A stretch of 64,000 nt of DNA from an uncultured Alphaproteobacteria bacterium (lineage in GTDB: Bacteria; Pseudomonadota; Alphaproteobacteria; Acetobacterales; Acetobacteraceae). Location of the stretch: positions 258,265-322,264 of the forward strand of contig CAWDQN010000010.1 of NCBI GenBank assembly GCA_963804495.1, written 5' to 3'. Positions 1-18,553 of this stretch are shown piece by piece. Made by a program: the position numbers and the translations under genes. Numbering within the stretch: the first letter of the stretch is position 1; every line of letters starts with the position of its first letter. The notes under the pieces are model-generated. The model did not search any database. It was not told where the DNA came from and saw only the letters and a list, made by a program, of their open reading frames with translations.

Positions 1-165
1 TGGATCGTCCGTGCGAGCGCCGATGTGAGGATGAAGCAAAAGAAGATCGACAAGAACCTTGATACGCGTCTGAACGCGCCGCGCCCCCTGTGCGGAACGG
101 GCCTCGATGTATTCAAGGATGGCATCGAGCTCGGCAAGAGCCTGAAGAGTATAGCGAAGCCTCAC
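1..165 (-). CDS. RelE/ParE family toxin (3' end beyond window edge)
   Basis: Not in ORF track; manual translation from GTG at 165: MRLRYTLQALAELDAILEYIEARSAQGARRVQTRIKVLVDLLLLHPHIGARTDDP, typical ParE N-terminus; GTGA overlap with upstream antitoxin stop. Confidence 0.85.
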   Translation of the reverse strand, partial: MRLRYTLQALAELDAILEYIEARSAQGARRVQTRIKVLVDLLLLHPHIGARTDDP

Positions 166-395
166 AAGCCGTATTTGCTCCACACGGCCCGCACCTGCGC
201 GTCAGTCGCAAATTCGTCACGGGCAGCGGCGGCTTTTGAGGCTGCAATCGAGGCGCGTTCATCGCTGGAAAGCTCAACCGGCACTGTCTCGTCATCCGTT
301 CCGGCAAGCCGGAGAACAACGCGGGCGATGTCGTCCTGAGCGTCCGGCGGGAGGCCACGCGCCGCTTCAAGTGCTTGTTCGAGAAGTCTTGTCAT
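162..395 (-). CDS. Putative antitoxin (addiction module protein) cognate to the ParE toxin
   Basis: 77 aa MTRLLEQALEAARGLPPDAQDDIARVVLRL...FATDAQVRAVWSKYGL; translationally coupled to toxin; ATG at 395 preferred over ORF-track start 449. Confidence 0.8.
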   Translation of the reverse strand: MTRLLEQALEAARGLPPDAQDDIARVVLRLAGTDDETVPVELSSDERASIAASKAAAARDEFATDAQVRAVWSKYGL

Positions 396-481: not shown

Positions 482-509
482 TGGTCGCACAACGCGCTTT
501 ATGGAAAGT
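482..509 (+). other. dif/pdif-like XerCD recombination site
   Basis: TGGTCGCACAA-CGCGCT-TTATGGAAAGT fits 11-6-11 dif layout; right arm resembles XerD arm TTATG(T/G)AAA(A/G)T, left arm resembles GTCGCATAA with one change; lies between two accessory modules. Confidence 0.55.
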
Positions 510-515
510 CAGGCC

Positions 516-1802
516 TTATGCGGATATCCCGCCATAGAGCCGTGCCGCCTCCGCAATCAGAGCGTCGAGCATCATAATGATCTTGGACGTATCATAGCTC
601 CCCGTTCTCAGGCTCTCGTCAGTCTGCCCCACAAAATGTCGCGCATAGGATTCCTTGTGCTCCAACGCGCCCTGCCAAGCGTCCACATCTTTTTTGTAAT
701 TGCTCCAGATTACTCTGGCTGGCGGATAACCGTTTAGTTTGAGGTCAAGATAGCACTCAATGGCGGCAGCGCGCCCGTTAATGTCGCAGTTGCTCAAGCC
801 TTCCGGCCCGAGCGCCGGAAACCGCCGCAACTCGTCAATGTCAGGCAGAAGCATCGAACGCATATTCCATGGCATTTTGAGGTCTTGGAGTTTGCGGTAA
901 GCATCCACACCCTCGGCGTCGTTATCGAGCAAAAAAAGCACCTTGTTCTGAATGTCGATCCTAACAAGGCCTTCAGCGAATTTGACCAGGTTGCCCGTTC
1001 CCCAGAAATGATGACGTTCATCGCCGTCGATAAACCGGAAGAAGTCGGCGACATCGGACCGCAGAATGTGGAGCGCCCGTCGAAGTATGCGGGCGTCTGA
1101 CGCGCCTTCCGTTGCAACTAGAATTGCTTGCTCACGTCGGGCGCCAGCACAAAACGCCTCACGATCAACCCAGCCTGCGTTTACGATTGGCCCGAATTGC
1201 CACACAACTTCTGCGTCGGCATTCTCGGGATTTAGGGCAAAGATTTGCAGCATCGATGACGGACTGAGAATGCATAGCTTTGCCGAAAGATAGCTGCTTT
1301 CAGACCAATAAAAATCTGATTTATCGGCCCAAGGAAGGCGAGAAAAGTCGCCGGCATGAGCGGCAAATCTGCCTTGTGCGACTGTAGCGCGGTCCGGAGT
1401 ATCCCTCTCAATGTATTCACTATTCAGGCTCGCCAGCGGATAGCGATTGGCAAGATCACAAAATTCTTCGAAAGTCAGCGGAAGCAACCCCTCTTCGCCA
1501 AAGCCGTATGTGGCGGCCTCGTCGAGAGCGTCTTGGTATTCTGCTTGCACCAAATCCAGAGTATGGCCCAGTACGTGCAGCCGCGGCAGCACCCGCGATA
1601 ATGGCCGCACAAACGCCAGCTCGTGTTCTGCTAGGTCGGCTTCCTCCTCCGGGTTCTCCTCATAGTATTTATAGTCTATTGCGCCGCTACGCCGCCGCGT
1701 TAAATCTGCCTCTTGAAATATGAACCCGTAGTCATTGCCCATGTTATTTTTGGCATAATCAAGGGAGACACCGCTTATCTCAAATGTTATCCCGGTTCCC
1801 AT
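516..1802 (-). CDS. HEPN/Toprim-associated N-terminal domain + TOPRIM domain protein (candidate defence nuclease)
   Basis: N-term MGTGITFEISGVSLDYAKN resembles proteins annotated HEPN/Toprim-associated; C-term half has TOPRIM acidic motifs VATEGASD and LLDNDAEG; visibly lower GC than the core genes. Confidence 0.7.
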   Translation of the reverse strand: MGTGITFEISGVSLDYAKNNMGNDYGFIFQEADLTRRRSGAIDYKYYEENPEEEADLAEHELAFVRPLSRVLPRLHVLGHTLDLVQAEYQDALDEAATYGFGEEGLLPLTFEEFCDLANRYPLASLNSEYIERDTPDRATVAQGRFAAHAGDFSRLPWADKSDFYWSESSYLSAKLCILSPSSMLQIFALNPENADAEVVWQFGPIVNAGWVDREAFCAGARREQAILVATEGASDARILRRALHILRSDVADFFRFIDGDERHHFWGTGNLVKFAEGLVRIDIQNKVLFLLDNDAEGVDAYRKLQDLKMPWNMRSMLLPDIDELRRFPALGPEGLSNCDINGRAAAIECYLDLKLNGYPPARVIWSNYKKDVDAWQGALEHKESYARHFVGQTDESLRTGSYDTSKIIMMLDALIAEAARLYGGISA

Positions 1803-1850: not shown

Positions 1851-2396
1851 TCATGCCACCAATCGCGAAATCGTGCTGTGGCTGACATTATACGATCTGG
1901 CGATCTCCCGCATAGGCTCGCCCGCATCACGGCGACGTAGCGCCTCCTTGATCTGGTGCGGCGTCATCTTCGGCGGGCGGCCCATCTTCACGCCCTTGGC
2001 GATGGCGCGCTTGCGGCCTTCGCCGGTGCGGGCGCGGATCAGCTCCCGCTCGAACTCGGCCAGCCCCCCCAGCACGGTAAGCATGAGGCGGCCGTGGGCG
2101 GTCGTGGTGTCGGCCCAGGTGTCGCCGAGGGAGCGGAAGCCGGCCTTCTTGGCGGCGATGCTGGCAAGCGTGTTGAGAAGGTCGCGGGTCGAGCGAGCCA
2201 GGCGGTCGAGCCGCGTGACCATCAGCACGTCATCGGCGTCGAGCTGGTTGAGCGCGCGCCGGAGCTGGCTGCGGTCGGTCTTGGCTCCGCTCGCCACCTC
2301 GCGGAACACCTGGCGCGCGCCCGCCGCCCGGAGCTGGCGCACCTGGGCGTCAACGCTCTGGCCGTCCGTCGAGACGCGCGCATACCCGTAAATCAT
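1851..2396 (-). CDS. Serine recombinase (resolvase/invertase family) with C-terminal HTH
   Basis: MIYGYARVST catalytic Ser motif, VTRLDRLARS, LAEFERELIRART..G, C-terminal HTH (REIARSYNVSHSTISR). Confidence 0.95.
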   Translation of the reverse strand: MIYGYARVSTDGQSVDAQVRQLRAAGARQVFREVASGAKTDRSQLRRALNQLDADDVLMVTRLDRLARSTRDLLNTLASIAAKKAGFRSLGDTWADTTTAHGRLMLTVLGGLAEFERELIRARTGEGRKRAIAKGVKMGRPPKMTPHQIKEALRRRDAGEPMREIARSYNVSHSTISRLVA

Positions 2397-2400
2397 GAGT

Positions 2401-2475
2401 TCGTTATGCACCTAGTTTCTGCAACGGAAAAGCCCTTAAATTTCAAGGCTCCGTTTTTGGTTCATAATTTTTGAG
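2401..2475. promoter_or_regulatory. Putative res site / resolvase promoter region
   Basis: AT-rich tract directly upstream of the resolvase (GTTTCTGCAACGGAAAA...CCGTTTTTGGTTCATAA); position typical of res sites. Confidence 0.4.
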
Positions 2476-2980
2476 TATTGGGACCATGACGGCATCGTCC
2501 TGGGTTAGCCCTTTGGATTCGCAAAGCCTTGTTCTGGTTGGCTTGTTCGCTCATCCCCAAAGTTGCCGTTTGATGGACGACTGCGGGTTGGACATATCCA
2601 GCGGACATCCACGAACCGCTTCCAGGAATAAATTCTGGATACGCGTAAAGAATGGTCACATGAGCACTCGATGACAAACCTCCTTTCACAACATTGGCAC
2701 GGGTGTATGGGTCAACGCCCCTCAGAGGCTCACCGACAGCACTCCTGGCAACGGTTCGCAATTTGTCCACAGAAGCGAAACACGAAACAACCCGCCTGAT
2801 CCGCTGACGTTCGGTCGAGTGGCGTGGATCAGCTTACGTCACGTCCGCATCGCGATGCCCTCCGCCTTTCCGTCGCCAACCTTCAACGCGTCCCTATCCC
2901 TCCGACCCCGCATATCGAGGCACGCACGCTTTCTGAATCTCCCTTGCTACCTGCTCCCGGTTGTAGTAGGAATATAATCC

Positions 2981-3583
2981 ATGAACGCCCAGCCCCACCC
3001 CGCCACCCCCAACCTCGCCCCAGCCTTCGGTGGTACCAGCGTCGGCGTCATCCTCCGCAATCTCGCCGCCCTCATCGCCCGCCGCTTCCTGAACGATCCG
3101 CTTCTCGCCGTCCTCATCATCCCCCTGTGGCGGCACCTCACCCGCGCCGCCGCCCGCCTCGACCGCCTGCGCGCCCGCCTCGCCGCCGGTCCCATCCCGC
3201 CGCCAAGGCCCCGCGCCAGCAACCACAGCGGCCCCCGTCGCCGCTCACCCTTTCCCACCACCAGCGCCTGGCTGATCCGTGCCCTCGGCGCCGAGGCCGC
3301 CGCCTGCGCCGCCCAACTGCAGGCGCTGCTGGCCGATCCCGCCGCCGCCGACCTCCTCGCCTGCACCGCCGCCCGCCGCACCCTTGCCCCCATCCGCCGC
3401 ATGCTCGGCCTCCCGCCCGCGCACCCACCCCGCCCCATCATCCCCGCATGCGTCGCCCCCGCGCCGCGACACCGGCCGCCGCCCCGGCCGGCCCCGATCC
3501 CGCACCACCCCACGATCGACCCGCGTCCCACCGCAAGCCGCCGCCCCTGGTGGCTGCCGCCGCCCCGCCTGCGCTCCGGCTGA
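2981..3583 (+). CDS. Hypothetical Pro/Arg/Ala-rich protein
   Basis: 200 aa ORF with ATG after AT-rich leader and strong C bias; amphipathic segment LWRHLTRAAARLDRLRARLAAG; no family recognised with certainty. Confidence 0.55.
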   Translation: MNAQPHPATPNLAPAFGGTSVGVILRNLAALIARRFLNDPLLAVLIIPLWRHLTRAAARLDRLRARLAAGPIPPPRPRASNHSGPRRRSPFPTTSAWLIRALGAEAAACAAQLQALLADPAAADLLACTAARRTLAPIRRMLGLPPAHPPRPIIPACVAPAPRHRPPPRPAPIPHHPTIDPRPTASRRPWWLPPPRLRSG

Positions 3584-3940
3584 CCCGGCCTCCCGCCCAT
3601 CGCCCTGCAACCTCCTGCCGTCCCGCTCCGGGCGTCGTCCCCCCGCGCCCGCGTTCCCGTCGGTGCCGTCGAGCCCGGTTGCCACCCGGCGGTGATGGTC
3701 ATGGCCAATGAATGGTGAACCGCCGCGGAGATCACCCTGCCGCGACCGGGATAACCGGAATCCCGCGAGCTGAGCGCGCCGCCCAACCCGATGCCCGGCC
3801 GCAGCTTGTGACCGCCGCCCCGGCGATCCGCGGCGGCGTTTCCGTCATTCGGGGTTCCCTCCGTCGTCGCGTTGCCTATGCTGCGCAGGATCACCGGTCC
3901 CTGGAAGCCCCGGGCCTTGGAACTGAGCGAAGTACAGAGC

Positions 3941-16188: not shown

Positions 16189-17143
16189 GACACGCTCTTT
16201 TTAATGATCGCGTGCATCGACGCGAATCCCATGGCCAGCAGGAGAATGCCGGCCAACAGGATGTGCTTGCCCATCGTGGTCGTGACCAGCACGGTCAGAT
16301 AGTCGGGGCTGATGATCAGCAGCGCGCCGGCGGCCACGAAGGGCAGGCAGCCCAGCACCCACATGGTCAGGCGTGCCTCCGAGGCCAGCGCGATCGCCCG
16401 CTGCTTCACGGCGACGCGCTTGCGCACGACATCGGCCAGGTTTTCCAGCGTCTCGGCCAGGCTGCCGCCGGACTGGCTTTGCAGCGTCAGCGCCACCGCG
16501 AAGAAACGATATTCGATCAGCGTGCTGCGCCGTGCCAGCCTGGCGATCGCCTCCGGCAGCGAGGCGCCGACCCTGATCTCGTCATTCAGCCGTCGGAACT
16601 CGGCCGAGGTTGGCCACTGGCCCTCCTCGCTGACCACCCGCAGGGCGTCCTGAACGGTAATGCCGGCGCGAACCGAGCGGTTGATCATCGACAGGGCGTC
16701 GGGCAATTGCGTGTAGAGGATGCTGGCACGGCGACTGAGAAAGACCCCGAAGATCGCGCGCGCGATCAGGAACCAGACCACCGGCAGCGTGATCCAGATG
16801 ATCGGGCCGATAAAGAAACTGGCCAGCCCGTCCACCGCGACCGCCACCGCCACGGTCAGGGGCACGATCACCCACCAGGGCATCGGGTAGAGATCGGGTC
16901 GCTCGGTGTCGATGCCCAGGATGGCCAGCACGCGCGCCGACAGGCCTGCCTTGCCCTCGCGCTCTGTCCAAGGGCGGCGCAGGGTGACAACGGGTGCTGA
17001 CGGCGGCGTATAGGCGAGGACGATGTCGGACACCCGCCGGCTGTGGGCGCGCGCCCGCCGGTCCGATACGAACAGCCAGACGCCGCCGGCCGCCAGGGCA
17101 GCGCCCGCGGCCAGCGTCAGCACCAGCGGGTCGAGTCCGGCGC

Positions 17144-17147
<4 letters not shown>
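16185..17147 (-). CDS. tadB: Tad inner-membrane platform protein TadB
   Basis: QLPDALSMINRSVRAG, QSGGSLAETLENLA, ASEARLT; probable TTG start at 17147 overlapping the natural tadA stop; appears fused to tadA in the ORF track. Confidence 0.88.

Positions 17148-18553
<1,406 letters not shown>

Follow-up and report, generated by a model that had tools for sequence, protein, structure and literature searches.

The left end of the window, by which we mean the whole 64,000-nucleotide stretch of contig C10 that was analyzed, falls within an island of 4.26 kb between trmJ and an amidase gene, a chromosomal setting that is syntenic with the main chromosome of relatives. Synteny with same-genus genomes places the left bound of this island at window position −1392, where the TrmJ-type methyltransferase gene has its 3′ end, and the right bound at 2871. 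The GC content is ~55% over the first ~2.4 kb of the window and ~68% elsewhere. From left to right, the island contains a frameshifted remnant of a trypsin-like protease gene, a ParE-family toxin gene and its partner ORF, a dif-like site, a HEPN/Toprim gene, a serine resolvase gene, and a tail of 0.4 kb (Table 1). The site occupies a gap of 120 bp within a line of minus-strand genes, which in their own reading direction follow the order resolvase, HEPN/Toprim, site, small ORF, and toxin.

Table 1. Features of the island that lie in the window, with the evidence for each.
Feature	Position in window	Strand	Basis
ParE/RelE-family toxin gene, 5′ part in window	1-183; full gene C10:258133-258447, 104 aa	-	PF05016 ParE_toxin, E = 8.7e-6
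Small 77-aa ORF immediately upstream of the toxin gene, XerC-arm side	162-395	-	ORF list
Accessory XerC/XerD-type recombination site (predicted), 28 bp	482-509	+	Arms-only score and class consensus
HEPN/Toprim cargo gene	516-1823; alternative ATG start 1802	-	PF18871 HEPN_Toprim_N, E = 2.4e-54
Small serine recombinase gene, resolvase/invertase type, 186 aa	1851-2411	-	PF00239, E = 3.6e-40, and resolvase HTH
Conserved region upstream of the resolvase gene, with palindrome CCTTAAATTTCAAGG at 2433-2447	2412-2467	-	Homology with the C12 copy
Low-GC island tail to the right boundary	2468-2871		G010 synteny resumes at 2871; GC profile

The HEPN/Toprim gene begins 27 bp after the resolvase stop codon, and its product is a candidate anti-phage effector. 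An exact-protein look-up returned it on a sole other contig, which belongs to the same strain. The small ORF beside the toxin gene, presumed to encode the antitoxin, has no match in Pfam or NCBIfam. Together with the toxin gene, which extends past the left edge of the window, it shows 79% DNA identity to a Defluviicoccus plasmid pair annotated as a hypothetical protein and a RelE/ParE toxin. The plasmid relatives differ from one part of the island to the next, coming from Sinorhizobium and Aeromonas for HEPN/Toprim, from Acidiphilium for the resolvase, and from Defluviicoccus for the ParE pair. No dif-like site was found at the examined plasmid loci of Defluviicoccus (toxin–antitoxin) and Sinorhizobium (HEPN/Toprim). 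Left of the window, at C10:256933-257942 (16933-17942 of locus L001), the low-GC trypsin-like serine protease gene is split over two overlapping frames and is probably a pseudogene; it likewise has no Pfam or NCBIfam match.

On the site's other side, the sequence upstream of the resolvase gene, palindrome included, marks a probable res site and/or promoter–operator of the resolvase, and a 102-aa ORF at 2462-2770 has no family match. The island contains no tyrosine recombinase gene, and neither a Tn3 transposase nor terminal inverted repeats were found at it, nor any convincing terminal repeats or target duplications. An 11-bp direct repeat, TCCGCCTTTCC, at the two island edges (window −1370 to −1360 and 2861-2871) is borderline, with E about 0.03 in a small search, and could be a target duplication or chance. 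A repeat of ~0.7-0.8 kb with ~15 copies in the genome at 83-90% identity (window 2874-3650) starts exactly at the right boundary of the island. It holds a 200-aa proline/arginine-rich ORF (2981-3583) and is also found at the syntenic place in the related genome G010. Window 3685-3749 may be what an old insertion left behind of a trmJ copy that had been duplicated or displaced.

The site has an 11-6-11 layout, with a left (XerC-type) arm TGGTCGCACAA at 482-492, a spacer CGCGCT at 493-498, and a right (XerD-type) arm TTATGGAAAGT at 499-509. A preliminary description of this DNA had quoted the same site and placed it 7 bp from the stop codon of the TOPRIM gene and 87 bp from the antitoxin start, the ATG of the small ORF at 395; the sequence, when re-read, agrees, and both distances are confirmed. 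We scored candidate sites with an arms-only weight matrix, which was trained on the dif sites of the family and leaves out the spacer. In a scan of the 4.15 Mb genome, the best score (35.5 bits) belongs to the chromosomal dif at C3:137707 and the second (31.7 bits) to the window site, followed by a third-best match of 23.1 bits and a remainder of at most 16.8 bits. The short pattern proposed in the preliminary description for a genome-wide scan, (G/T)CGCAYAA-N6-TTATG, has the window site as its sole exact match in the genome. E. coli dif used as a query gave nothing useful, its best matches having 5-6 mismatches.

The arms of the window site recur at the same spacing in just one other place in the genome, C3:137707, to which they are identical at 19 of 22 positions. 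They also fit the consensus of Acetobacteraceae (301 genomes), and the spacer length of 6 bp lies in the range of dif-type sites (6-8 bp). No promoter or terminator motif was found around the site. The third-best match, CCGCCGAA AGGAGA TTATGGAAC on the minus strand at C10:151475, lies in DNA of normal GC content with no resolvase gene nearby and may be an old scar or chance. Two sequences resembling a XerC arm were rejected as sites: CCGCATAA at window 516-523 overlaps the HEPN/Toprim stop codon, is partly coding, and has the wrong orientation, and TCGTATAA at the 3′ end of the resolvase gene merely encodes the conserved helix-turn-helix. There is no second site of at least 8 bits in the island, and none was found in the 18 kb left of the island or in the equivalent stretches of relatives. 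The nearest other candidate site is 107 kb from the window site.

The best-scoring sequence of the genome, TTGTCGCAGAA GATATA TTATGGAAACT at C3:137707, is the dif of the chromosome. It fits exactly the dif form of the clade, (T/C)CGCA(G/T)AA-NNNATA-TTATGGAAA, which occurs about once per genome and was matched in 33 of 41 relatives and in 164 of 301 Acetobacteraceae genomes. The window site and this dif share their arms and differ in their spacers (CGCGCT versus GATATA). Because GC skew was too noisy for placement of the terminus, we used the polarity of KOPS (GGGNAGGG). This polarity flips within ~14 kb of C3:137707 (~138-152 kb of contig C3), with 23 forward and 5 reverse motifs on the left side and almost all motifs reverse on the right. 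KOPS are forward on both sides of the window site, and no flip occurs at its contig position, C10:258746. In genome G003, the syntenic trmJ locus and a canonical dif lie 1.2 Mb apart on a single contig of 3.28 Mb, and no dif-like site is present at the syntenic position downstream of trmJ in G010, G003, G005, or G001. The absence of a KOPS flip at the window site and the synteny with G003 together indicate that this site is the dif of neither the chromosome nor a secondary replicon. The genome encodes one XerC-type and one XerD-type recombinase, both full length, with profile scores under the NCBIfam strict cut-offs: the gene at C16:74266-75114 scores best as XerD (294.5 bits), and that at C7:123115-123999 scores best as XerC (289 bits).

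Our survey of the family revealed a second class of sites, which have a GC-rich spacer often ending in GCT and include the window site. The class consensus, drawn from 46 sites, is nnG(C/T)CGCA(G/T)AA-SSSGCT-TTATGGAAA(G/A)TC, or, in short form, ..CGCA[G/T]AA-SSSGCT-TTATGGAAAGTC. None of the 46 has a spacer ending in ATA, as in the chromosomal dif. Bases 28-29 (T and C), which lie outside the weight matrix, are conserved in the class and present in the window site, and the C at position 9 of its left arm is found in 1 of the 46 sites. The variants of the right arm covary only partly with the host's own dif.

Sites of this class are linked to a partner that the preliminary description had overlooked, namely, the serine resolvase gene. 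When loci were ascertained by the site, 10 of the 18 fetched, including the window locus, contained a homologue of the resolvase gene that lies on the XerD-arm side, at a distance of 0.2-3.6 kb, and reads towards the site. Conversely, among 41 family loci picked solely because they contain a close homologue of the resolvase, 17 showed a site of at least 15 bits downstream in the same orientation. In 80 loci from GTDB genomes, a set that overlaps in part with the 41, we counted 32 downstream-convergent matches (26 loci) versus 4, 8, and 2 in the other classes of position and orientation, with a chance expectation of ~0.25 matches per class. Removal of duplicates left 46 distinct sites of at least 20 bits at 42 loci, and in every case the resolvase gene is convergent with the site. 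About half of the close resolvase homologues, including the copy on contig C12 of this genome, have no detectable site. The hosts are soil alphaproteobacteria, among them Acetobacteraceae, Rhizomicrobium, Xanthobacteraceae, Methylocystaceae, Stellaceae, and others; on plasmids, for example, pACRY04, the layout differs.

Units are homologous to one another only in the ~29-bp site and across the resolvase gene plus ~60-100 bp on its upstream side, and the cargo in between is unrelated. The flanks of 10 sites likewise share nothing beyond ~29 bp. The window locus and locus L024 have ~70 bp upstream of the resolvase gene in common, and within the genome, window 1864-2467 is 92% identical to the C12 copy, the repeat ending at 2467. 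This C12 copy belongs to a second resolvase module (C12:136338-139500; gene at C12:136394, 95% protein identity), in which the gene is followed by ~2 kb of cargo at 43-49% GC, and a decayed third copy is found at C3:326731-327026. In another genome (G051), two unit copies, L021 and L022, have upstream of the resolvase gene a shared gene for a Fic-domain protein, with the motif HPFxDGNGR as read off the DNA; some units therefore reach beyond the res region of the resolvase.

The units have a regular architecture. The cargo genes are on the strand of the resolvase gene and begin 0-30 bp past its stop codon, and the last cargo stop codon precedes the site by a median of 26 bp, compared to 7 bp at the window locus. 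The mean GC content is 53.5% inside the outermost site and 65.0% outside it, with a step of at least 5 points in 36 of the 42 loci and a reversed step in none (p = 2e-8); at the window site, GC is low on both sides, unlike at most loci of the class. At some loci there are 2-5 sites, which have differing spacers and, almost without exception, direct orientation. Direct flanking or arrayed sites are seen at L118, L140, L145, and L156, as well as at L173, and matches upstream of the resolvase gene comprise 8 direct versus 2 inverted. Locus L145 is a tandem of two units, each with resolvase gene, cargo, and site. Three dif-like sites, one of them inverted, crowd into ~85 bp upstream of the resolvase unit in L173 (5002-5085), in what looks like a worn, multiply used docking point.

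The 46 cargo ORFs that we examined are highly diverse and rich in defense families. These include SIR2-like proteins (3), Drt2 (2e-129), NsnA/B, AriA, OLD and GajA-like ATPases, GmrSD, PD-T4-2, RiboL-PSP and MAE_28990 HEPN proteins, and a CapP-like peptidase, in addition to HEPN/Toprim in the window. The position that HEPN/Toprim occupies as cargo in the window is taken elsewhere by SIR2, Drt2, AriA, OLD, GmrSD, and similar genes.

Comparison of related loci shows that recombination end-points coincide with these sites. Loci L140 and L143 represent the same locus in two genomes and are 98% identical, with L140 containing an extra low-GC segment of 1,049 bp between two direct sites. L143 has a single, hybrid site, in which the flank, left arm, and spacer bases 1-4 come from site 2 of L140, and the last spacer base, right arm, and flank come from site 1; a crossover inside the 6-bp spacer follows from this structure. 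Loci L122 and L129 have the resolvase gene's 5′ part in common, and also everything outward from the site, but the cargo in between differs. The Acidiphilium plasmid pair L089 and L181 shares the resolvase gene as well as a stretch of 1.5 kb that begins 1 bp before the site, and the segment between them differs. The cassette gain and loss that the preliminary description had proposed to look for among related strains is thus borne out in related loci, where differences end exactly at such sites. It could not be followed at the window's own locus, where the empty-site comparison failed because G010 and G003 carry other DNA, in the form of unrelated stretches of 1.7-2.2 kb with no dif-like site. 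The reciprocal comparison of the G010 and G003 elements with this genome (G000) gave synteny breaks only. The G010 element (L016, G010:C34), which lies at such a break, joins DNA that is found on two contigs of G000 (C16:71653 and C3:510200), and its C16 breakpoint is 2.6 kb from the XerD-type gene.

Taken together, we consider it reasonably probable that the window site is a genuine accessory site of the host recombinases, presumably XerC and XerD, and that it closes a resolvase-anchored defense cassette. The sequence comparisons themselves establish that the site is real and belongs to the class, that it is linked to the resolvase gene and lies at a boundary, that the units carry defense cargo, and that crossovers have taken place at such sites in related loci. 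Read on the minus strand, such a unit would consist of the res site or promoter, the serine resolvase gene, one defense gene (HEPN/Toprim), and the site as its distal end. With XerC and XerD bound to its two arms, the site would undergo strand exchange, within the spacer, with a compatible-spacer partner on another DNA molecule, for example, a plasmid, a circular cassette, or a further copy of the unit. The outcome at the site would be insertion, loss, or replacement of genes, and a second crossover in the conserved resolvase gene or its res site would swap the cargo between two anchors. The foreign, GC-rich spacer would bar recombination with the chromosomal dif. Because the site is located mid-replichore, the reaction would be expected to be FtsK-independent and XerC-first, by analogy to cer/psi sites and IMEX. 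The constant presence of a serine recombinase gene is unaccounted for by a purely Xer-driven model.

The window copy is solitary and has no partner with the same spacer, and it is probably a quiescent docking site or a scar between the HEPN/Toprim unit and an older module represented by the ParE pair and the protease remnant. The preliminary reading of this position as a junction of two cargo modules is fair, as low-GC foreign DNA flanks the site on both sides. Its further proposal, that the site ends a XerCD-shuffled cassette array, survives as far as a Xer-type junction amid defense and toxin–antitoxin genes is concerned, with arrays of 2-5 sites found at other loci, but the island itself has a single site. 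Nor does an array continue to the left of the window, as had been anticipated, since the island measures only 4.26 kb and has no second site. More tentatively, soil alphaproteobacteria may carry a gene-capture platform in which a resolvase gene is followed by compact, mostly anti-phage cassettes, each closed by a GC-spacer dif mimic, with host XerCD moving the cassettes mid-chromosome in an integron-like manner and the window site serving as one docking point; we rate this broader proposal as possible, at somewhat under an even chance.

Alternative explanations for the site differ in whether it is a site at all, which replicon it serves, and which enzyme acts on it. An accidental likeness to dif in an intergenic spacer has practically no probability. 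The short pattern with one mismatch does turn up in 13 of 100 shuffles of the window and is weak evidence alone, but the window site ranks second in the genome, 8.6 bits over the third-best match, the reversed genome contains nothing scoring at least 20 bits, and the same class of site adjoins the same gene at 42 loci. We likewise consider it extremely unlikely that the site serves as dif, for dimer resolution, on a chromid or secondary replicon of which contig C10 is part. Secondary replicons of multireplicon alphaproteobacteria, those of Azospirillum among them, do have dif sites of a motif particular to them, and both types of site are reported for two chromosomes of A. brasilense (10.64898/2026.09.14.751567); the same-arm, different-spacer sites on different contigs of the present genome would be in keeping with such an arrangement. 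Such an assignment is already contradicted by the KOPS polarity, which is unchanged across the window site and flips near the C3 site, by the shared contig of the trmJ locus and canonical dif in G003, and by the position of the site inside a foreign island of 4.3 kb, and relatives have no site at the syntenic position. It is also very unlikely that the site bounds a set of Acinetobacter-type pdif modules, in which alternating inverted XerC/D and XerD/C sites shuffle single modules. The 11-6-11 core anatomy is the same, toxin–antitoxin genes are common in dif modules (PMC13141974), and pACRY04 has a weak inverted second site (13.5 bits) across its resolvase gene. Against these stand the single site of the island, the predominance of direct sites and arrays at related loci, and a context that is chromosomal rather than that of a Rep_3/OrfX plasmid. 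The analogy to Acinetobacter drawn in the preliminary description accordingly fails in its plasmid context and in its alternating layout, the sites of relatives proving almost all direct when their orientation was checked.

Two other possibilities accept the class and its partner gene and assign the site a different role. It is improbable that the linked serine resolvase, and not XerCD, acts on the site as the outer crossover of a cassette or invertible segment, the resemblance to dif being likeness only. The tight linkage to the resolvase gene in a fixed orientation at 42 loci speaks for it, and the L140/L143 crossover (spacer positions 4-6), taken alone, fits both recombinase types. However, both arms, TTATGGAAA included, copy the family-specific chromosomal dif and are asymmetric, in contrast to the inverted half-sites bound by a resolvase dimer. 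Moreover, the region upstream of the resolvase gene, which contains the resolvase's own palindrome, has no related sequence, the island offers no inverted partner, and many resolvase copies have no such site. We also hold it unlikely that the site is a plasmid multimer-resolution site of the cer/psi kind, which arrived with a fragment of a stability region (resolvase plus ParE toxin–antitoxin) and is now inert, with no cassette traffic. For every part of the island, the nearest relatives in the database are plasmid-borne, Acidiphilium plasmids have dif-like sites with GC spacers near related resolvase genes, and a resolvase with ParDE represents typical plasmid stability functions, as in the par region of RK2. 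Yet cer and psi, which act on plasmid dimers, depend on accessory sequences of ~180-200 bp next to the XerC arm, whereas nothing is conserved past ~29 bp in the present class, such that no accessory sequences of this type are visible. The sites also abut cargo stop codons and mark a GC boundary, they occur in direct arrays whose spacers differ, and they fall at the end-points of indels and swaps in chromosomes. Most examples are on contigs of megabase size.

Nearly all documented mobile modules bounded by Xer sites are, to our knowledge, either those of Acinetobacter plasmids or IMEX at the chromosomal dif, and we found no description in the literature of a defense unit made up of a resolvase gene and a dif mimic. 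The same host machinery appears here to serve a new layout, with single or direct sites mid-chromosome that are tied to a serine resolvase gene, and this layout apparently moves phage-defense genes among many uncultured soil alphaproteobacteria. If this is true, it would constitute an extra route for the spread of defense genes and account for one class of small, low-GC defense islets. It would also provide a search signature for new defense genes, consisting of a resolvase gene, 1-3 genes, and a dif mimic. The question raised is why a serine recombinase gene should always be attached to sites apparently made for tyrosine recombinases.

Several known systems share features with these units. 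Like the dif2 site of Vibrio cholerae and the sites of Azospirillum secondary replicons, the window site is a second site with the same arms and a differing, more GC-rich spacer, but those sites lie at a terminus with converging KOPS and serve dimer resolution, whereas the window site has no KOPS flip and sits in a foreign island. The sites cer and psi are XerCD core sites away from the terminus that function independently of FtsK and have spacers unlike that of dif. The present class resembles them in both location and spacer, and differs in having no conservation past ~29 bp and in marking the ends of cassettes in chromosomes.

The pdif sites of Acinetobacter consist of a XerC arm, a 6-bp spacer, and a XerD arm that mimic the host dif, with the XerD arm better conserved (PMC13141974). 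Their spacers vary and decide which sites recombine, and modules are replaced between related replicons; the dif modules, each of which has inversely oriented sites at its ends and which alternate as C and D modules, are found on Rep_3/OrfX plasmids and commonly have toxin–antitoxin genes as cargo (PMC13141974). The present units share the site anatomy, the logic of the spacer, and the small accessory modules, toxin–antitoxin pairs included. In contrast to pdif, the sites of the window class lie in chromosomes in direct orientation, often as single copies, and have a serine resolvase gene as their partner, and they occur in soil alphaproteobacteria with mainly phage-defense cargo.

IMEX, such as CTX-phi, VGJ-phi, and TLC-phi of V. 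cholerae and the gonococcal genetic island, have no tyrosine integrase of their own and rely on host XerCD. Integration leaves them between direct repeats of dif-like sites, tandem arrays can form, and the spacer governs the pathway. Use of host XerCD, as proposed here, would be a point in common, as are the direct arrays in related loci. The island itself has no tyrosine recombinase gene and a single site. However, IMEX integrate at the terminus dif, whereas the window site is mid-replichore on a contig other than that of dif (C3), its spacer shares nothing with that of the host dif, and the units are cassettes of 1-4 kb and not phages or large islands.

The res–resolvase modules of the Tn3 family, in which recombination at res yields mosaics, likewise combine a small serine resolvase gene, a res site upstream of it, and toxin–antitoxin or passenger genes beside it, but the island lacks a Tn3 transposase and terminal inverted repeats, and elements of the Tn3 family are not bounded by dif-like sites. 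Finally, the units recall integron cassettes in having a recombinase gene at one end followed by compact units, each closed by a site just past the stop codon, and sedentary integrons also store defense genes. This likeness is one of functional analogy only: in place of an IntI integrase, attI, and the folded, single-stranded attC of integrons, the window class has double-stranded dif mimics, on which host XerCD presumably act, and, next to them, a gene for a serine enzyme (PF00239).
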